Notes under the pieces: model-generated | Told to the model about the DNA's origin: nothing | Database searches by the model: none | What the model saw: only the letters and a program-made list of their open reading frames with translations | Shown: positions 38,533 through 52,612 of the stretch, one piece after another | Layout: every line of letters begins with the position of its first letter | Numbering within the stretch: the stretch's first letter is position 1 | Program-made: the position numbers and the translations under genes | From: Waterburya sp. | Lineage (GTDB): Bacteria > Cyanobacteriota > Cyanobacteriia > Cyanobacteriales > Xenococcaceae | Assembly (NCBI GenBank): GCA_965217895.1 | Contig: CBDCJV010000002.1 | Location: 832,001 to 896,000 of the forward strand | Direction of reading: 5' to 3' | DNA length: 64,000 nucleotides

Positions 38533-39382
38533 ATGAATAAATCCGACCGAGCTTTATTTGATATTCCCAGGGAGATTGTCTATCTCAACTCTGCCAGTAT
38601 TGCTCCTAGACTTAAAGAAGTTTCTAAAGCTGGACATCAAGGCATCGATGTTTTTTCTAGCCCTTGGTCGATTACTCTTGACGATAGGTTTCGCAATCCA
38701 GAGATACTCCGTGAAGAATTTGCCCGTTTCATCAAAGTTGATGCCGACACTGTTGCCCTAGTTCCCTCTGCAAGCTATGGCATCGCGATCGCAGCCAAGA
38801 ACATTCCCCTAGAAGCAAATGCAAATATCGTCGTTCTCGAAGACCAATACCCTTCAAACATCTACGCTTGGAAAAGACGAGCCAACGAATCAAGAGCAAT
38901 CATACGGGTTGCTCAACGAGGGACAAATAATTCTCTGACTGAATCAGTGTTAAACCTCATTGATTCAAATACCGCCGTAGTTACAATTCCCAACTGCCAC
39001 TGGACGGATGGTGAACTGCTTGACCTTGTTGCTATTGGTGAAGCAGCTAGAACTGCGGGTGCTGCATTGGTTGTTGATGCTAGCCAATCTTTAGGGGCTT
39101 TGTCCATCAATTTTGATAGGGTTCGACCTGATTTTGTTGTTTCAGTTGGTCATAAGTGGCTACTGGGTTCTTATGGACTTGGATATTTATACGTTGACCA
39201 GAAATGGCATAGTTGCGGAATTCCCATAGAAGAATCTTCGCTTACCCGTCGGGGGAGCGAGGACTTCTCGCAACTAGCTAACTATGTCGATGAATACCGC
39301 CCAGGCGCACGCCGATTTGACTTTGGAGAGTTCACTCAATTTATTTCAATACCTATGGCTATAGCCGCTATTTCACAACTCA
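38533..39382 (+). pseudogene. Class V aminotransferase (cysteine desulfurase/kynureninase-like), 3'-truncated by IS630
   Basis: YLNSASIAP, VDASQSLG, GHKWLLG; the frame runs into the IS TIR at 39383 and no continuation follows 40543. Confidence 0.82.
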
Positions 39383-40543
39383 TACTAAATCCGATTTATA
39401 AAGTATGTAAACAACAAGCGTTTTTTAGCCAATGATAGTTAGTCAATTTACGAACTTCATCTTTCATTTCACTGACTACACAACAACGCTCAACTAAAAT
39501 GTCCTCTATCTCATTGATAGTTTCAAAATATTGATTTACCAGAGGTTCATCTACTAACTGCCATAACCTTTCGGCTGGCTGTAACTCTGGAGAATAAGGA
39601 GGTAAAAAATCAATCTTTATTCCCTCTGGAATAATCGCTTTTTTGCTGTGATGCCATCCTGCATTATCTTCTATCAAAAGAATTTTTTTTGATTATTAAT
39701 TCCAGCATCAATAGCAAACTGTTGATAAACCAGATTCAGCCAATTTGTATTAACTCTGGGAATTAGATACCATAAAGTTTCTCCAGTTTTTGGCTTAACG
39801 AACCCATAAACATACAACCATTCGTATCGATGTTGTACTATTGCTTCTGGTCGATGACCAACTTTTGACCAAACCTTTTTTAGTATTGGTTTTAATCCTA
39901 CTCTATGCTCGTCGAAAAACCACAGTTCTACCTCCACATCTGGATTTTCTTGTTCAAGTTGCTTAAGTTTCAATGGCAAGTTACTTTTGAACATCTCTTG
40001 CTCTAATTTATTGGCTTTTTTATGTGTTGGTCTTGGACTTTGCCAAGAGTAACCGCACTTTTTTAAGTAGTCCCATCCTCTCTGATTCCCGACTTTTTCT
40101 CTGCCCGTTTCTTTTTCAATCCAGCGAGCTACCTTAGTTCCTGTCCAGATTCCTCCGTCTGGTAACTCTTTGGCGATCGCTTTTGTTAGTTTTTCTAATT
40201 GTGGTTGTGATAGTAACCTTTTTTTTCCTCTAACATGATTGCTGGTTTTATTTTGGCAATTTTTGACCCCTTCCTCTCCATAGAGGTTGTACCGACCGAG
40301 AATCTTTTGAGCATAAGAATAAGAACATCCCACAGCGAGCGCACTATTTTTAATCGTCCATCCCAAAGATATTTTCGCGATTCAGATGCCATCTTCTCAC
40401 TTCCACTGAGTTTTGACTCTTCAGATACTTTTCTTTTAGTTCAGAAGAACTAAAATGTTTTGCTAAATAAGCTGTTTTTGGCATTTAACATTTTTAAGTT
40501 ATTCCTCACTATTTTATACACACTTTGGTAATCGGATTTAGTA
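39383..40543 (-). mobile_element. IS630-family insertion sequence; transposase 40484 to 39396 with two frameshifts
   Basis: TIRs TActaaatccgatt-tataaagtatgtaaa and tttatacacactttggt-aatcggatttagTA; MPKTAYLAKH...; FDEHRVG, DNAGWH, PPYSPELQPAERLW; frameshifts near 40380 and at the A8 run near 39690. Confidence 0.92.
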
Positions 40544-42098: not shown

Positions 42099-43694
42099 TT
42101 ACGCTTTACTTAACCTGAGAATCTCATTCACCTTTTCAGGATAGACTGACCTCAGTTGCTTTTCCTGTGCTTGAAATTCGGCTAGCTGTGCTTCAATTTC
42201 ATCTTTGACAATTTGACGATATTCGAGGAAATGCTCATTATGGGCGCACATGGTTAGGTAATGTTCCCAAACTCTAGGATTATGGCGGAAAATACCAAAT
42301 AAATGATGCCAAAACTTCCAGCGAGTATTTCGTTTAACGCCCTGTCGCCAAATAACAATACCTAAAGCGCGAATGTCCACCCAATTGGGCATAGTAAAGG
42401 ATGTTTCGTGTTGAGGTGAGCCTAGCTTGAGGAAACAGCGATATACACGGTCTAGGTATGTTTTTGGTTCGTAAAGCGTCCAAAATGCCAGAATGTACTC
42501 TTGGGCAATTTCTTCAATGGGGCGAGTCGGCATAAAGTTCATCAAGGTAGTTTGGTTGATGTCTTGCTGCTTACTATCTCGCAAACGATTTTCTTGTTCC
42601 AAACGCGCCCATAAAGCAGTTAAGGGCAAAGCCTGCAACATCCCAAACATAGCCGTGGGAATAGCTGCTTCCTCTACAAAATTAATAATTCTTTGACCTG
42701 CACCTGTTTTCTCGCCATCAAAACCGATAATAAATCCCGCCATCGGACGAAGCCCCGCCCTAATCATGGTATCGACAGTTTCTGCTAAAGAAGTACGGGT
42801 ATTTTGGAATTTTTTGGTTAGCTGCAAGCTTGTTTCATCAGGAGTTTCAATTCCTAAAAAGACAGCATTAAAATTACACTGCACCATCAATTCCATCAGT
42901 TCAGCGTCAGCAGCTAAATCTACCGAAGCCTCGGTATTAAAATCAAAAGGATATTGATGTTTCTCTTGCCAGACTTTCAATTCTTTGAGAAACAGCTTAA
43001 CATTACGTTTATTGCCAATAAAGTTATCGTCTACCATAAATACTGAACGTCGCCAGCCTAATTCATAGAGGTGATCTAATTCTCGTAACAGCTGTGCTGG
43101 TTCTTTGGTACGGGGTTTGCGACCATAGAGAACAATAATATCGCAGAACTCGCACTGAAACGGGCAACCACGGGAAAACTGTACCGACATAGAGTCATAA
43201 GCATCAAGCTCTAGCAAATCGTAGCGAGGGACAGGAGTGGTAGTCACATCAGGCTTTTCAGCAGCGCGGAAGACACCGCTGATTTCACCTTTGGCTATAG
43301 CTTCGACAAACATCGGCAAAGTTAACTCTCCCTCATCTAAAATGAGAAAATCTGCTCCTGCTGCCTTTGATTCATCAGGTAAAGAAGTTGAATAGGGACC
43401 ACCTACAGCTACTAATTTCCCCCGTCTTTTTGCCTCTTGAATTTGCTTTAGCAGGTCTTGCTTTTGGACAATCATGGCGGAGAAAATTACTAATTCTGCC
43501 CAATCCCATTCTGCTTCGGTAACTTCTCTGATGTTACGGTCTACTAGCTTAAATTCCCATTCTTGGGGCAATATAGCAGCAACGGTAAGCATTCCTAAAG
43601 GCGGTAACAACACTTTGCGATTAACTAGTTCTAAAATTTTGTCATAAGACCAAAAAGTCTTAGGAAAAACAGGATAAATTAATAAAGTTCGCAT
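42099..43694 (-). CDS. B12-binding radical SAM protein (DUF4070-type C-terminus)
   Basis: PPLGMLTVAA, SRGCPFQCEFCD, VDDNFIGN. Confidence 0.92.
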   Translation of the reverse strand: MRTLLIYPVFPKTFWSYDKILELVNRKVLLPPLGMLTVAAILPQEWEFKLVDRNIREVTEAEWDWAELVIFSAMIVQKQDLLKQIQEAKRRGKLVAVGGPYSTSLPDESKAAGADFLILDEGELTLPMFVEAIAKGEISGVFRAAEKPDVTTTPVPRYDLLELDAYDSMSVQFSRGCPFQCEFCDIIVLYGRKPRTKEPAQLLRELDHLYELGWRRSVFMVDDNFIGNKRNVKLFLKELKVWQEKHQYPFDFNTEASVDLAADAELMELMVQCNFNAVFLGIETPDETSLQLTKKFQNTRTSLAETVDTMIRAGLRPMAGFIIGFDGEKTGAGQRIINFVEEAAIPTAMFGMLQALPLTALWARLEQENRLRDSKQQDINQTTLMNFMPTRPIEEIAQEYILAFWTLYEPKTYLDRVYRCFLKLGSPQHETSFTMPNWVDIRALGIVIWRQGVKRNTRWKFWHHLFGIFRHNPRVWEHYLTMCAHNEHFLEYRQIVKDEIEAQLAEFQAQEKQLRSVYPEKVNEILRLSKA

Positions 43695-46212: not shown

Positions 46213-46764
46213 TTATTTTAATCCTAGCTTCTTACGTAGTTCTGTTGCACCCATAAATAGCAATGGTGTAACAATGAAGCCTGTAATAATCAAGTGCAAA
46301 GGAAAGTGAAAATAAAAATACCAGAGAATCAAAACTCCATAGGTAGAATCCATATGATCGATAAAATAAAATATTCTACTGCTTTCATCTCCAGGAGGTA
46401 TTTCTAAGCGACGCTTGACAAAAGAATTAGGTAATTCTGATAAGTTAAAAACAAATCCTACTAATAAGCCAAACTCTAAAAGATTAAGATTAGAAAATAA
46501 GATTGCTGATTGGGGTAAATTAGGAGTGAAAATTTCAATGGTATTTAATAAATAAACGCTAGCTACCATTGCTATGGGTAAACTAATCAATCCTCGCCAC
46601 TTTTTGTTTGCCCCAAACCATTGTGTTTGAATAGGAATATTTAACATTTGAAATAAACTAGTTTGCCATAAAAAAGATTCAATAACGCCAGCAAAAAATA
46701 GGCTAAGAGCCAGCCAGAGTAAATTTAGAGTATCTAGAATAAAAATTTGCGTCCAGCCCATCAT
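46213..46764 (-). CDS. CDP-archaeol synthase (CarS/DUF46)-like cytidylyltransferase
   Basis: FGANKKWRGL, SELPNSFVKRRLEIPPG and IDHMDS resemble CarS-family motifs; multi-pass membrane protein. Confidence 0.75.
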   Translation of the reverse strand: MMGWTQIFILDTLNLLWLALSLFFAGVIESFLWQTSLFQMLNIPIQTQWFGANKKWRGLISLPIAMVASVYLLNTIEIFTPNLPQSAILFSNLNLLEFGLLVGFVFNLSELPNSFVKRRLEIPPGDESSRIFYFIDHMDSTYGVLILWYFYFHFPLHLIITGFIVTPLLFMGATELRKKLGLK

Positions 46765-46971
46765 ATATTTAAAGAAACAGCTTTTATTTTAATTTGATCG
46801 CCTATAATTGCTTGTTTTTAGCAAATAGAAAAATTGTCAATTACCCACTTTTAATTGTCAATGAATTCTTTACCAAACCTGATTTAATTCATATTCTTAA
46901 GTTAATCTCAATTTTATCTAAAGTGTTTATATTAAATGCGTTGGTTATTTTAAAGAACAGCCTTAACGCTA

Positions 46972-48255
46972 ATGAAAATTGCAATTATTACTTCAGGTTT
47001 CTTGCCAATTATTGACGGAGTAAGCATTAGTGGACTACAAAGATTAACAAGATTAAGTCAGTGGGGACACGAGGTTATCTTGTTTTGTCCAGACTATAGT
47101 AGCTTAGAAGCAGACTATCCTAATTGGCGGGACTACACAGGAAATATTTTACCTGGGGTCAAGGTTGTTAATTTAAACAGCAGTTCCTTTGTGGGTTTAG
47201 ACTATGAACCAAATGTGAGTAAAAAGTCATATCAAACTGTCTTAGAAGAATTAGAGCAGTTTCAACCAGATATAGTTCATGTTGACGAACCTGAAAGACT
47301 CTTTGTTGGTTTTTGGCGAGTTGCGGGGATAGATTATGCAAAACGTGTTGGTGTTCCTTGCGTGAGCTTTTTTCGTACCAATTTCTTAGATTATCTAGAG
47401 GATTATTTTCCTCTACCAAAGCCAATTTCCATTGCCGTCAAATTTTTACTGCAACAGCTAATTGTTTGGGTATATAACTCCTATGATCTCACATTAGTTA
47501 CAAGTAAGATTACCTATCCCAAAGTTATTGAACTAGGTATTAAAAATGCTCAGTATAGCAATTTAGTCGGTTTTGATAGCGATCGCTTTAGTCTTTATTC
47601 ACCTCAAGCAGATTTTTTTAAGTCTAACTATGGGCTAGAAATAGACAAACTAACAAAAGTTATCTTTCTGGGGCGTTTATATCCAGATAAGGACTGGGAT
47701 TTTACCTTAGATGCGTTTACAGCCGTTTCTCAGCAAATTGATTTAAACAAGGTGGCAATAATTGTGGCAGGGGACGGCCCAATGCGTCAAGAAATAACCG
47801 ATAAATTAAGTAAGCTGACTTCTAATTTACACTTACTCGGCAGAGTAGCACCTGAAGATATACCCGCTTTATTAATTAACTGCGATCTCCACGTAACCAC
47901 TTCTGAAAAAGAAACTAGAGGCTTAACGATTTTAGAAGCATTTGCAGCGGGGATTCCTGTAATTGCGCCCAACTCAGGGGGAGTAGTCGAAAATATCCAA
48001 GCTGGTAGTAATGGATTTCTTTACACTCCAGGCGATCGCCTGGACTTTACTAGTAAACTAAAAATTCTCATTGAAAATCCTAGTTTAAGAAAAGAAATGG
48101 GCGATCGCGCTCATGATTCAATTCAAGCATACAGTTGGGAGCAAGCGATTCAAAATTTAGTTAATGTTTGGCAAGAGGCGATCAATAAACAATTATCAAT
48201 GACCAATGAACAATTTACGCCTCAACTAGCAACTAGCCTAGCCGATAGCAAATAA
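46972..48255 (+). CDS. GT4-family glycosyltransferase
   Basis: FLPIIDGV, FLGRL, AGDGPMR, ETRGLTILEAFAAGIPVI. Confidence 0.9.
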   Translation: MKIAIITSGFLPIIDGVSISGLQRLTRLSQWGHEVILFCPDYSSLEADYPNWRDYTGNILPGVKVVNLNSSSFVGLDYEPNVSKKSYQTVLEELEQFQPDIVHVDEPERLFVGFWRVAGIDYAKRVGVPCVSFFRTNFLDYLEDYFPLPKPISIAVKFLLQQLIVWVYNSYDLTLVTSKITYPKVIELGIKNAQYSNLVGFDSDRFSLYSPQADFFKSNYGLEIDKLTKVIFLGRLYPDKDWDFTLDAFTAVSQQIDLNKVAIIVAGDGPMRQEITDKLSKLTSNLHLLGRVAPEDIPALLINCDLHVTTSEKETRGLTILEAFAAGIPVIAPNSGGVVENIQAGSNGFLYTPGDRLDFTSKLKILIENPSLRKEMGDRAHDSIQAYSWEQAIQNLVNVWQEAINKQLSMTNEQFTPQLATSLADSK

Positions 48256-50049
48256 CTAATCACTAAAAAACTGCCCTGCTAAATCGGTAATATCAGTATC
48301 GGCTATTTCGGACTGTTGCCACTGCGCCACTGTATTTAAGCTGCCATCCAAAAACATACTCTGACAAGCGCGACGCTGTATTTTACCGCTAGAAGTTTTA
48401 GGAATGCTGCCCGTTTTTAGTAAAGATACGGCAAATACATTGGCTAGGTTTTGTTCGCCGACTGCCAGACGAATTGCGCCGATGACTTCTTCGGCGTTAA
48501 GATTTCGTAAGTCAGCACGATTTATTTCGTGGGCAATTACTAATTGTTCCTCCCCACCGACTTCTACGCTAAAGGCTGCACCATGATTGGCACGCAAGGC
48601 AGGATGACAAGTTTCGACAGTTTCTTCAATGTGTTGAGGGTAATGATTGCGTCCCCAAAGAATCATCATTTCTTTGATACGCCCTGTTATATATAGTTCC
48701 CCGTCTTTGATAAAGCCAAGATCTCCTGTGCGGAGGTAGGTTTTATCTGGTTTGTCAGCTAAAGTTGCTTGAAAAGTTGCTGCTGTTTGTTCTGGTTTTT
48801 GCCAATATCCTTTGCCAATTCCTACCCCTGCTACCCAAATTTCTCCTACCTGATTACTTTTACACTCAGTTTTTGATTCGGTATTGACAATAATAATTTC
48901 ATCCTCCAACCAAGTATGACCACAGCTAACCACAGCTTTTGAGTTGGGGTGATCTGGCGTTACGGTGACAACTTCGTCTTTAGTTAAAGCTGTTTTATCT
49001 AGATAAGTAACTTTAGGGGATTCTGCTGCATTACCCCCCGTGATAAATAAAGTAGCTTCAGCCATGCCATAACAGGGATAAAAGGCTTCTGGTTTAAAAC
49101 CGCAGGGTTTGTATAACTCGGCAAATTTGGCTAGAGTTTGCGCCCTTACAGGTTCAGCACCAGTGAAAGCTACCTGCCAATGGCTTAAATCTAAACTAGC
49201 TCGTTGTTCTTCCGTAACTTTCTGACACAATAGGTCATAGGCAAAATTTGGGCCACCACTAGTGGTTATCTGGTATTTAGACAACGCCTGTAGCCAAAGA
49301 AAAGGCTTTTGTGCCAGAGCAATAGGAGACATTAGCACCGCAGGTAATCCTGTATATAAAGGCTGCATCACGCCACCAATTAAACCCATGTCATGAAACA
49401 TCGGCAGCCACATCAAAATTTTAGTGCGATCGTGATGTCCGAAAGACTGATAAATAACCTCTGAATTGTGGAGTACATTCCCATGAGTGACCATTACACC
49501 CTTGGGATCTCCTGTTGAACCAGAAGTATATTGTAAAAAAGCTAAGGTATCGCCGTCGATATTTGGTTTTTGCCACTTAGACGCTAAATTTAAATCAACT
49601 TTGTCACTGGCAATCCAGGGTAAAGCTTTTAGCTTTAGTGCCATGCCAGGATGGGCAACTAACTGTCCTTTAACGCGATCGCCAAATTCTTGAGTGGTTA
49701 AAATAATTCCAGCTTGACAATTATCGATCCGATCTTGATACTGACTCAAAGATTTAATATGCTGTCGGGGATAGTCGGTAACGGCGATAACTCCAGCATA
49801 GAGACAACCCAAAAAACTAGCGATAAACTCTAAACCAGAAGTGTAGGGATAAACCAACAAAGCGCGATCGCCTGGTTTAACTTTATCAAGGAGTTGTACA
49901 GCGATCACTCTTGCTTGAAGATCTAATTCTTGGTAAGTACAGCTACCCGATTCTTTCTCTCCATCGGCTAAAAAGGTATAGGCAGTCTGCTTGGGTTGGC
50001 ATACCGATTTATCAAGCAAAACATCTACTATGGTGGAATAATTAACCAT
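48256..50049 (-). CDS. Stand-alone fatty acyl-AMP ligase (FAAL)
   Basis: AFLQYTSGSTGDPKGV, WLPMFHDMGLIG, YPCYGMAEATL, LRTGDLG, IPKTSSGKIQR. Confidence 0.9.
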   Translation of the reverse strand: MVNYSTIVDVLLDKSVCQPKQTAYTFLADGEKESGSCTYQELDLQARVIAVQLLDKVKPGDRALLVYPYTSGLEFIASFLGCLYAGVIAVTDYPRQHIKSLSQYQDRIDNCQAGIILTTQEFGDRVKGQLVAHPGMALKLKALPWIASDKVDLNLASKWQKPNIDGDTLAFLQYTSGSTGDPKGVMVTHGNVLHNSEVIYQSFGHHDRTKILMWLPMFHDMGLIGGVMQPLYTGLPAVLMSPIALAQKPFLWLQALSKYQITTSGGPNFAYDLLCQKVTEEQRASLDLSHWQVAFTGAEPVRAQTLAKFAELYKPCGFKPEAFYPCYGMAEATLFITGGNAAESPKVTYLDKTALTKDEVVTVTPDHPNSKAVVSCGHTWLEDEIIIVNTESKTECKSNQVGEIWVAGVGIGKGYWQKPEQTAATFQATLADKPDKTYLRTGDLGFIKDGELYITGRIKEMMILWGRNHYPQHIEETVETCHPALRANHGAAFSVEVGGEEQLVIAHEINRADLRNLNAEEVIGAIRLAVGEQNLANVFAVSLLKTGSIPKTSSGKIQRRACQSMFLDGSLNTVAQWQQSEIADTDITDLAGQFFSD

Positions 50050-50119
50050 TCGTTTACTATTTTTTAAACAATGACTGTAAGATTTCCTATAATGTAGTCC
50101 AATAATGGAGGAAGGTTAA

Positions 50120-51217
50120 ATGGTGGGGAGCGTAAAAATTGCAATTGTCGGTGTAGGGAACTGTGCTAGTTCACTCATCCAAGGAATTGAATACTATCGA
50201 GACAAACAAGAGACAGATGCGATCGGCTTAATGCACTGGGAAATCGGCGGCTATAAGCCTTACGATCTTCAGGTAGTTGCTGCTTTTGATATTGACCAAC
50301 GTAAGGTAGGAAAGGATGTTGCTGAGGCAATTTTTGCTCCTCCTAACTGTACAACGGTTTTTTGTGAAAACGTCCCCAAAACGGGGGTTACAGTGGAAAT
50401 GGGAGCAGTGTTAGACGGTGTGGCAGATCATATGAAAGATGCTGATGAAAAATACACTTTTGTGATCGGCGATCGCCCAGAACAGTCAAAAGCAGATGTT
50501 GTCAACAGTCTTAAGACATCTGGTGCAGAGGTTTTAGTTAACTATCTTCCCGTTGGTTCACAAGAAGCTGTAGAGTTCTATGCTGAATGTGCCTTGGATG
50601 CAGGAGTAGGCTTTGTTAACTGCATTCCTGTCTTTATTGCCAGCAAGCCATTATGGGCAGATAAATTTAAACATCACAATATTCCGATCATTGGCGATGA
50701 TATTAAATCTCAGTTTGGAGCAACTATTAGCCATCGTACTCTAGTCGATCTTTGTAAAAAGCGCGGAGTTAAGGTTGAGCGTACCTATCAGCTAAATACT
50801 GGCGGTAACACTGACTTTCGCAATATGCTCGATCGCTCTCGCTTAGATTCTAAAAAAGAGTCAAAAACTGAAGCAGTACAGGGAGTAATTGCCAAACGCC
50901 TAGAAGACGAAAATATTCATGTTGGCCCTAGTGACTATGTACCCTGGCAAAAAGATAACAAAGTGGCATTTATCCGCATTGAAGGTAAATTGTTTGGCGA
51001 TGTGCCAATGAACCTGGAGATGAGACTTTCTGTTGAGGATTCTCCCAATTCGGCAGGGGTAGTGATTGATGCTATTCGCTGCTGTAAATTGGGCTTAGAT
51101 CGAGGCGTTGGTGGCGTTTTAACTGCTCCTTCTGCTTATTTCATGAAGCATCCTCCTCAACAGTTTACCGATGACGAAGCTTATCAAATGACAGAAGCGT
51201 ATATCAATGAACAATGA
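50120..51217 (+). CDS. ino1: myo-Inositol-1-phosphate synthase (short bacterial/archaeal type)
   Basis: IVGVGNCASSL, NYLPVGS, GDDIKSQFGAT, QLNTGGNTDF, DSPNSAG. Confidence 0.93.
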   Translation: MVGSVKIAIVGVGNCASSLIQGIEYYRDKQETDAIGLMHWEIGGYKPYDLQVVAAFDIDQRKVGKDVAEAIFAPPNCTTVFCENVPKTGVTVEMGAVLDGVADHMKDADEKYTFVIGDRPEQSKADVVNSLKTSGAEVLVNYLPVGSQEAVEFYAECALDAGVGFVNCIPVFIASKPLWADKFKHHNIPIIGDDIKSQFGATISHRTLVDLCKKRGVKVERTYQLNTGGNTDFRNMLDRSRLDSKKESKTEAVQGVIAKRLEDENIHVGPSDYVPWQKDNKVAFIRIEGKLFGDVPMNLEMRLSVEDSPNSAGVVIDAIRCCKLGLDRGVGGVLTAPSAYFMKHPPQQFTDDEAYQMTEAYINEQ

Positions 51218-51481: not shown

Positions 51482-52612
51482 ATGGATATAGTTGATTTTT
51501 TAAATGTATCAATTCACAACATCACTACTGCTGAGTTGTTGCAAGATTTGAACATTAATGGTGGGGTTGTGGTGACTCCAAATGTCGATCATTTAGTTAA
51601 AATACAAAGCGATCGCGAATTGCTCAAGGCTTATTATCATGCAGATTATCGAGTTTGTGATAGCAAAGTTCTGCAATATATTTCTTTGTTATTAGGTAGT
51701 CCAATCAAAGAAAAAATTTCGGGTTCTGATTTATTTCCCGCCTTTTATGAATACAACAAAGATAACGAAGATGTTCGCATATTTCTTTTAGGTGCCAAAG
51801 AAGGAATTGCTCAACAAGCATTAGTTAATATTAATCAAAAAGTGGGCAGAGAAATAGTAGTAGCTGCTCATTCTCCTTCTTTCGGCTTTGAACAAGATGA
51901 ACAAGAATGCCAGGCTATTATTGAACTCATAAATCATTCTGATGCTACGGTTTTAGCCGTGGGAGTTGGCGCACCCAAACAAGAAAAATGGATTGCTAAG
52001 TACCGAGATCGATTACCAAAAATAAAAATATTTCTGGCTATTGGCGCAACCATTGACTTTGAAGCGGGAAATGTTAAGCGATCGCCTAAAATAATGAGCG
52101 AGATGGGCTTAGAATGGTTATATCGTCTTTCTAGCGAACCTAATCGCCTCTGGAAAAGATATTTAATTGATAGCCTACCTTTATTTTATTTAGTAGGAAA
52201 ACAACGATTTCATCAATATAGATTTTCGCCTCAATTACAAACAGAAAATTTGCCTTTAGGAGAACTTTTACTTCAGGCGGGTTTGTTATCCCCCCAAAAT
52301 ATTAGACAGACTCTAAAACTTCAACAACAATACGCAGATTATCGTTTTGGCGAAATTTTAATTCAAGAAGGTTATCTTCCTTCAAAAACAGTTGGCTTTT
52401 TTGTGAATGAGCTACCAACGCTAGTTCACTCCCATGATAAGCTACGTTTGGGAGACTATTTAAACAATGCAGGACTTCTTTTGCCCGAACAAATCAGCGA
52501 TACTTTGCAGCAGCAATCTTTAACACATCGCAAATTTGGCGAAATCATCACTCAAAAAGGCTGGGTTAATCCCCGAACTCTTGATTGGTTTGTCAATTTA
52601 CAGCATGGGTAA
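51482..52612 (+). CDS. WecB/TagA/CpsF glycosyltransferase with C-terminal MshEN-like repeats
   Basis: VTPNVDH, SGSDL, GVGAPKQE, GLEWLYRL..EP.RLWKRY; four (R/K/P)(L/F)G...G(L/Y/W)(L/V) repeats. Confidence 0.88.
   Translation: MDIVDFLNVSIHNITTAELLQDLNINGGVVVTPNVDHLVKIQSDRELLKAYYHADYRVCDSKVLQYISLLLGSPIKEKISGSDLFPAFYEYNKDNEDVRIFLLGAKEGIAQQALVNINQKVGREIVVAAHSPSFGFEQDEQECQAIIELINHSDATVLAVGVGAPKQEKWIAKYRDRLPKIKIFLAIGATIDFEAGNVKRSPKIMSEMGLEWLYRLSSEPNRLWKRYLIDSLPLFYLVGKQRFHQYRFSPQLQTENLPLGELLLQAGLLSPQNIRQTLKLQQQYADYRFGEILIQEGYLPSKTVGFFVNELPTLVHSHDKLRLGDYLNNAGLLLPEQISDTLQQQSLTHRKFGEIITQKGWVNPRTLDWFVNLQHG

Follow-up and report, generated by a model that had tools for sequence, protein, structure and literature searches.

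Genes for a probable inositol-phosphate sphingolipid pathway in a cyanobacterium of the genus Waterburya

Inositol lipids have been described as rare in bacteria (PMC9246714), and as of 2022 neither a sphingolipid enzyme nor a free long-chain base had been characterised from any cyanobacterium (PMC8895605). The subject here is a group of four genes in a stretch of 64,000 nucleotides from Waterburya sp. (the window), which encode a CarS-like cytidine triphosphate (CTP) transferase, a family 4 glycosyltransferase (GT4), a stand-alone fatty acyl-AMP ligase (FAAL) and the myo-inositol-phosphate synthase (MIPS) Ino1. The wider gene set to which the locus belongs probably makes an inositol-phosphate sphingolipid by way of a cytidine diphosphate (CDP)-activated sphingolipid, the predicted product of the CarS-like enzyme. 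Such an intermediate has so far only been proposed (PMC11324152), and a search of the open literature found no description of the gene set, no characterised enzyme for the CDP route and nothing on CDP-ceramide. The pathway consists of known enzyme families in a combination and order for which no characterised example was found.

How does this locus compare with the closest described systems? The nearest precedent is the phosphosphingolipid pathway of Caulobacter crescentus, for which the ceramide kinase CpgB/CC_1160 has been shown and a nucleoside diphosphate-activated ceramide proposed, untested (PMC11324152, which also names CC_1161). As predicted for Waterburya, the kinase comes first. The Caulobacter head group is phosphoglycerate, whereas inositol is predicted here, and unlike Caulobacter the Waterburya genome has a CarS-family activator, a SphK1-like kinase and a TSC10-like reductase; a single query found in it no YghO/Aca-type N-acyltransferase, the type of enzyme used in the proteobacterial Spt-bCerS-CerR ceramide pathway. 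In Bacteroides thetaiotaomicron (BT_1522-1526) the head group comes from phosphatidylinositol-diacylglycerol (PI-DAG) through BT_1522, and a CDP-inositol route has been proposed for the B. vulgatus-type cluster (PMC9246714). There, likewise, a bacterial MIPS feeds an inositol lipid or sphingolipid; unlike Bacteroides, the Waterburya set is predicted to activate the lipid side, and the genome gave no full-length AUR1-like match, only a partial PAP2_3 match. The archaeal archaetidylinositol route shares with the cyanobacterial set a CarS-fold CTP-transferase (5GUF), Ino1 and a CDP-alcohol phosphotransferase, down to an archaetidylinositol-phosphate synthase (AIPS)-like transferase in some cyanobacterial genomes and loci (G034, G378, L252 and L266); it differs in that linked genes in cyanobacteria suggest a sphingoid backbone and that Waterburya uses a eukaryote-family PI synthase. 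For the long-chain base, the rhodobacterial AasR-AcpR-Spt trio consists of a FAAL-type acyl-ACP synthetase, an acyl carrier protein (ACP) and an alpha-oxoamine synthase (AOS; PMC9386255), and Pseudomonas SgaAB yields serine-derived sphinganines with a phospho head group and no N-acyl chain (bioRxiv 2024.02.06.579051). The same logic of synthetase, ACP and AOS recurs in Waterburya, which, unlike these systems, adds a second, ACP-less FAAL clade and a eukaryote-type reductase, kinase and PI synthase. The last two share sequence family and key motifs with eukaryotic PIS1/CDIPT and sphingosine kinase. In eukaryotes these enzymes belong to separate branches of metabolism, and inositol phosphorylceramide is made by transfer from PI. 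Unlike there, the cyanobacterial PI synthase and kinase are co-inherited with the CarS-like enzyme.

The locus and the genes inherited with it

Below, G000 is the genome that holds the window and C2 its contig; other G numbers are compared genomes and L numbers compared loci. The features of the window are as follows.

46213-46764, minus strand: predicted CarS-family (DUF46) membrane CTP-transferase, 183 aa, PF01864
46972-48255, plus strand: GT4 glycosyltransferase, accessory, 427 aa, PF00534 and PF13439 above cut-off
48256-50049, minus strand: stand-alone FAAL, candidate enzyme for the N-acyl (second) chain, 597 aa, AMP-binding
50050-50122, no strand: FAAL/ino1 intergenic region, likely shared divergent promoter, with TATAAT and GGAGG before the ino1 GTG
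50120-51217, plus strand: Ino1, myo-inositol-phosphate synthase, 365 aa, PF01658, probable start GTG at 50123

The sequence bears out the four reading frames, the strands and the spacings that an earlier note on this DNA had given (207 bp between the CarS-like gene and GT4, 0 bp between GT4 and FAAL, 70 bp between FAAL and ino1), and Pfam and NCBIfam profiles agree with its families (CarS-like, GT4, FAAL-type AMP-binding, Ino1). The ATG of ino1 at 50120 is not conserved and the following GTG is invariant in 13/13 aligned sequences, so the start is probably at 50123. Mean column identity in the FAAL/ino1 spacer is 92% over 13 genus sequences, a figure that includes about 30 coding bases on each side and comes with no neutral baseline; the spacer is likely to be a divergent promoter shared by the two genes. 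Named relatives of the genes of G000 are from Waterburya and Pleurocapsa, and the cultured strains that carry the PI synthase gene include Waterburya agarophytonicola KI4 and Pleurocapsa sp. CCALA 161.

Is the grouping of these genes more than chance? Among 22 genomes of the genus that have ino1, the divergent FAAL/ino1 pair lies on a single contig in 19, and ino1 stands at a contig end, on the FAAL side, in the other three; the CarS-like gene is linked to the locus in 17, unresolved in one and elsewhere in four. Because these linkages recur across the 22 genomes, the grouping exceeds chance. GT4, on the other hand, is within the locus in only nine, one of these copies being broken. Of the single four-gene pathway envisaged by the earlier note, there remain three genes that travel with kinase, transferase and long-chain-base genes, and GT4 drops out. 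What is left at the locus is the core of a larger gene set, whose other members are scattered in G000.

Across 45 genomes the CarS-like gene and the SphK-like kinase always occur together (25 genomes) or are missing together (20); in the 401 genomes of the phylum, the close CarS subfamily and the kinase are found in the same five, and two further genomes hold only distant CarS-like genes. Ino1 scores above the Pfam cut-off in 7/401 phylum genomes and is present in 21/24 genus genomes, and the eukaryote-type PI synthase occurs in 4/401 and 20/24 (19 full length, one cut by a contig end), respectively. The gene set is real and lineage-restricted; a search of sequencing runs listed no RNA run among its holders. 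In G001, G006 (99% complete) and G012, ino1, PI synthase, CarS-like gene and kinase are jointly absent. Since G006 and G012 nevertheless retain a 3-ketodihydrosphingosine reductase (KDSR), the ACP-AOS fusion and the window FAAL, the set falls into two modules: a core for the long-chain base, and a head-group module whose genes can disappear together even though they lie far apart in G000. The window FAAL, at 80-82% identity in G006 and G012, tracks the sphingoid core and not ino1. KDSR and ACP-AOS are both present in all four non-genus or complete module carriers checked (G000, G034, G312 and G378). G034 and G378 carry the module without the eukaryote-type PI synthase, but with a transferase similar to AIPS or to phosphatidylinositol-phosphate synthase (PIPS), whose best match is AIPS at about 120 bits against a cut-off of 180; an AIPS-like transferase adjoins the kinase in L156 and lies between kinase and ino1 in L266. 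That two unrelated inositol transferases would fill one slot supports inositol as the head group.

In other cyanobacteria the genes that are scattered in G000 stand together. L110 and L111 cluster FAAL, ino1, PI synthase, a radical SAM gene and the kinase, with PI synthase directly 3' of ino1 and FAAL divergent as in the window. L114 brings together PI synthase, kinase, CarS, AOS, ACP and desaturases. In L118 the CarS-like gene and ino1 flank GT4, Stealth, LicD, a short-chain dehydrogenase/reductase (SDR; KDSR), a FAAL-ACP-AOS fusion of 1078 aa and a second FAAL, and a lipid kinase is divergent from CarS; G000 holds scattered orthologues of all the core genes of L114 and L118. L155 consists of FAAL, hydroxylase, FAAL, ACP, AOS, KDSR and CarS, and L266 of kinase, inositol-phosphate transferase, ino1 and KDSR with CarS divergent. 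The metagenome cluster L264 also has a PF08557 sphingolipid Delta4-desaturase. Around 17 more divergent metagenome CarS loci, some of them related or nearly identical and not independent as tests, the kinase is nearby in 10, KDSR in six, either in 13 and neither in four. With kinase, KDSR, AOS, FAAL and ACP as cluster contents, the backbone is likely sphingoid. The inositol lipid on a non-standard backbone that the earlier note had suggested thereby gains support, and the CDP-alcohol phosphotransferase and ACP that it had missed are both encoded in G000, unlinked to the window.

Enzymes of the proposed pathway

The CarS-like protein matches PF01864 at 37.9 bits (cut-off 22). Sequence search gave no solved-structure relative and no match among the plasmids searched. 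Its AlphaFold model (predicted local distance difference test score 92.6) has archaeal CarS 5GUF as top Foldseek match, with a probability of 1.0 and template-modelling scores of 0.55/0.62. The motifs G51-x-N-K54-x-W-x-G58 and E110-L-P-N-S-x-x-K-R-R118, as well as D136 and D139, are invariant in 34 homologues, and the acidic and K-R-R residues among them presumably serve the CTP-dependent activation of a lipid phosphate. The protein fails the archaeal equivalog for digeranylgeranylglyceryl phosphate (NF003114, 33.8 bits against 148). Because its partner gene is a SphK-like kinase, it is predicted to CDP-activate a sphingoid 1-phosphate. The distant CarS-like genes of two other phylum genomes (L224, L225) lie 3' of a phosphoenolpyruvate-utilising (PPDK-like) gene, a different kinase partner.

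Ino1 scores 123.7 bits on PF01658 and 459 on TIGR03450, under the 638 cut-off of the latter, and G000 has four inositol monophosphatase-family genes. Two other occurrences of ino1 were seen. G378 has a divergent Ino1 (L119:9478-11771), with no BLAST match to the window protein, which adjoins a GFO/IDH/MocA oxidoreductase and lies apart from the sphingolipid cluster of that genome. In G350 (L116:6009-13503), an ino1 76% like that of the window sits amid glycosyltransferase, sulfotransferase and carbamoyltransferase genes where the lipid module is absent, a further way in which a cyanobacterium uses inositol.

Which enzyme would attach the inositol? G000 has two CDP-alcohol phosphotransferases, PgsA and a 219-aa PI synthase-like protein (C2:4630765-4631424). 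Clusters in which 98-100% of members are eukaryotic PI synthases match the latter with scores of 0.96-0.97, and its identity to named PI synthases of eukaryotes is 32-39% (E down to 1e-46), as against E 2e-4 to PgsA and 2.5e-5 or no match to PIPS-like proteins; sequence search found no solved-structure relative. Its D48, D51, G52, A55, R56, G65, D69 and D73 are invariant in 10/10 sequences and make up the full family motif D-x-x-D-G-x-x-A-R...G-x-x-x-D-x-x-x-D (PMC9246714). By these comparisons it belongs to the eukaryotic PI synthase family and is a predicted inositol transferase. A quick tree places six cyanobacterial copies in one clade (99) amid eukaryotic PI synthases. Viral contigs hold one full-length homologue, 37% identical to the G000 protein, in a giant-virus metagenome-assembled genome (L277:5992-6636), and two weak matches to the kinase.

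Among solved structures, the kinase (C2:1447168-1448469) matches human SphK1 best (E 1e-50), ahead of AGK (1e-22) and DgkB (3e-11), with no ceramide kinase among the matches. A D-x-D-x-E-S-E segment is common to it and SphK1, not AGK, and its D268, invariant in 8/8 sequences, aligns with SphK1 D178, again not shared by AGK; we take D178 to be a functional residue of sphingosine kinase. A close homologue (P0217) is named from Thiorhodovibrio winogradskyi, outside the cyanobacteria.

For the long-chain base, TSC10 is the only solved match of the SDR-type reductase (C2:2869462) at E<=1e-25. The AOS domain of an ACP-AOS fusion (C2:3710204-3711841) has LCB2a and SPT (serine palmitoyltransferase) as best solved matches and finds a PKS (polyketide synthase)-adjacent Pseudomonas AOS at E 1e-137, compared with 8e-63 for the BioF-like AOS of G000, from which the fusion is distinct; in clusters its orthologues are linked to ACP and the KDSR-type reductase. 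G000 further encodes a single-module reducing PKS of 2550 aa that carries an AOS domain at its C-terminus (C2:3885488-3893140), a fused SgaAB form, and L160 has a similar fusion near a second KDSR-like gene and a sulfotransferase; such fusions may make very long sphingoid bases. Two small fatty-acid-hydroxylase-family genes (C2:736878-737366 and C2:95697-96179), 49-51% identical to the L155 cluster hydroxylase, are candidate sphingolipid hydroxylases.

The window FAAL has an AMP-binding domain on which FAAL models rank top, none at its NCBIfam cut-off; the best solved match is the FAAL 7R7E-G (E about 1e-176). Profiles, solved matches and tree all group it with FAALs, not acyl-CoA ligases. In a quick tree it falls into a clade of 14 stand-alone FAALs (Shimodaira-Hasegawa-like approximate likelihood-ratio support 99). 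Each sphingolipid cluster represented in this tree has its ACP-less FAAL in that clade; FAALs that are fused to ACP-AOS or lie next to it branch elsewhere, as do the starters of olefin synthases and PKSs. A two-residue insertion marks 14/14 members of the clade against 0/16 others, and W465 replaces R in the A8 region in 12/14. Aligned with EcFAAL (BL21, numbering offset 14), the window enzyme places R95 on P107 and inserts Y69-T70 just before the T83 equivalent, and in these respects departs from the small Pro/Thr residues that guard the holo-ACP pocket. At the P107 position 25 of 26 genus variants have R and one has K; P stands there in L110, L111 and most other clade members. In EcFAAL itself, P107R and T83F/R almost abolish holo-ACP transfer and spare adenylation (PMC8460268).

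Is the window FAAL then handing its acyl group directly to the sphingoid amine? The R95 at the P107 place, the remodelled acceptor side and the N-acyltransferase not found are the grounds for this proposal, which must be called tentative. The search for a YghO/Aca-type enzyme in G000, by phmmer (E<=0.01) and tblastn (E<=0.1), returned none with a single E. coli BL21 query, ECD_02850 (YghO, which is aca; PMC9386255), the query itself being the sole positive control. A search for a LAG1/TLC ceramide synthase gave no match in G000 or in control genomes and is uninformative. It weighs against direct N-acylation that all characterised FAALs load holo-ACP (PMC12820801), and some other acyltransferase may exist in G000. 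Derivation of the window FAAL from the start of an olefin synthase was rejected, as G000 encodes a FAAL-PKS of 2764 aa as well, whose FAAL belongs to another clade. The remodelled clade has a further stand-alone member in G000 (C2:1717632-1719485), which keeps the insertion and the W but has Pro where EcFAAL has P107.

What was observed directly is which genes are present, to which families they belong, how they co-occur and how they cluster elsewhere; the chemistry of the pathway is our reading of this. FAAL-b (G000:C2:4788306) would load a fatty acid on the ACP of the ACP-SPT-like fusion (C2:3710204), which would condense the acyl group with serine, and the TSC10-like reductase (C2:2869462) would yield sphinganine. 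The window FAAL would supply the amide-linked second chain, possibly from acyl-AMP straight to the amine or, alternatively, via an ACP plus some acyltransferase. Before or after N-acylation, the SphK-like kinase (C2:1447168) would phosphorylate C1, and the window CarS-like enzyme would convert the product into a CDP-sphingolipid. Ino1 and an inositol monophosphatase-family enzyme would provide myo-inositol, which the eukaryote-family PI synthase (C2:4630765) would join to the lipid, displacing CMP; GT4 would be an optional add-on. With this gene set, cultured strains can be tested directly on several points: whether a cyanobacterium makes a sphingolipid and an inositol lipid, what a CarS-family protein does in bacteria, whether a sphingolipid is activated as its CDP derivative on the way and, possibly, whether a FAAL can acylate an amine rather than ACP. 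Natural strains that have lost the head-group module alone, and lineages in which an archaeal-type inositol transferase takes the place of the eukaryote-type one, offer built-in controls.

Weighing the alternatives

How secure is the sphingolipid reading? Several observations weigh against it. The ACP-AOS fusion is under every NCBIfam cut-off, the SPT models giving 316/640, 294/500 and 238/670 bits, and scores higher on BioF (343 of 426 bits, a cut-off also unmet); therefore serine is not established as its substrate. Among 120 kinase homologues, 14 also carry PF19280, which we take to be the C-terminal region of ceramide kinase, so that either free base or ceramide may be the substrate. The Foldseek match of the CarS-like model to 5GUF has an E of only 0.043 at 18% identity, and an orthologue of the L264 Delta4-desaturase is missing from G000. 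G002 is without PI synthase, and G350 and G358 have ino1 but not the module. Most carriers are from one genus, which means that the counts lack independence, and completeness is only 81-88% for G001, G002 and G012. As to the origin of the PI synthase, an approximately unbiased test, made after two long-branch rows had been dropped, did not reject a single clade of the 23 non-cyanobacterial rows without the cyanobacteria (p 0.23); therefore transfer from a eukaryote is not established, and family membership stands.

Could the product instead be an ordinary or unusual PI, with the kinase acting on di- or monoacylglycerol, the CarS-like enzyme making a CDP-glycerolipid, PI synthase adding inositol and the sphingoid genes being a separate branch? 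The transferase comes from a family known to use CDP-DAG, the substrate of CarS is a glycerol-ether phosphate, and AOS and KDSR are kept without the module in G006, G012 and G036. However, G000 encodes its own CdsA and would need no further CTP-transferase to make CDP-DAG; the kinase is far nearer SphK1 than AGK or DgkB; CarS adjoins KDSR or AOS in several independent lineages; and the four carriers named above all have KDSR and ACP-AOS alongside the module. A PI product thus looks improbable. A backbone other than sphinganine, made from an amino acid other than serine or from a PKS chain that is branched or very long, and passing through the same kinase, CDP and inositol logic, perhaps to a surface-polysaccharide anchor, is quite unlikely. 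The kinase step requires a C1 hydroxyl, which favours serine, the Pseudomonas PKS and AOS pair uses serine to make sphinganines (bioRxiv 2024.02.06.579051), and one cluster (L264) has the Delta4-desaturase. This must be set against the nearest plasmid relatives of ACP-AOS, which adjoin PKS and capsule genes in an SgaAB-like arrangement, against the PKS-AOS fusion of G000 and the SPT cut-offs missed by ACP-AOS, and against the GT2, GT10, GT25, Stealth, LicD and sulfotransferase genes of the L114 and L118 clusters.

The view that all four window genes form one unit, in which GT4 glycosylates the inositol head like PimA, turns on the inheritance of GT4. It stands between the CarS-like gene and FAAL in the nine genus loci mentioned above, and the clusters L118 and L264 contain GT4 genes too, though unrelated ones. 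A close homologue (at least 69% identity) is found in 15/25 genus genomes, including G006 and G012, which lack the inositol genes; none was found at E<=1e-60 in the module carriers G034, G312 and G378, and GT4 is missing from the locus in two very close relatives (L027, L028) and broken in L035. Its longest NCBIfam match is alpha-monoglucosyldiacylglycerol synthase (82 bits against a cut-off of 400), and its solved-structure matches are all weak, the best at E 4e-17 and the PI-mannoside transferases 3okc/3oka at about 2e-10. The PimA-like role suggested by the earlier note is therefore not supported, and the one-unit reading is highly unlikely; GT4 is an accessory gene, not tied to the inositol module, whose acceptor is possibly a lipid.

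The sphingolipid reading also has a bolder form, in which a lineage of cyanobacteria makes a true inositol phosphorylceramide by a route known from no organism: a FAAL that has lost its pocket for ACP would serve as a ceramide synthase of a new kind, a eukaryote-type kinase and an archaeal-family CTP-transferase would give CDP-ceramide, and a eukaryote-derived PI synthase would have been repurposed as sphingolipid synthase. Taken as one joint claim, this is doubtful.

Neighbouring genes

The neighbouring wecG, recD-like, GFA and patD genes do not track the module in relatives and were rejected as members. A B12-dependent radical SAM gene (DUF4070; window 42099-43694, minus strand) lies 2.5 kb from the CarS-like gene. 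Such genes recur beside the module (L110:5907-7481, L111:4098-5672, L252:10704-12320 and L249:3-461) and could methylate a lipid chain; the window copy was left out of the pathway, since those of L110 and L111 match the paralogue at C2:3994651 better (71% versus 67%). An aminotransferase-like open reading frame (window 38533-40366) is apparently cut at its 3' end by two transposase-like frames, judging from translations only. At window 51482-52612 (plus strand) a WecG/TagA glycosyltransferase is fused to MshEN-type cyclic di-GMP motifs (NF053729 above cut-off); it comes after ino1 in the loci of eight relatives, not in most.

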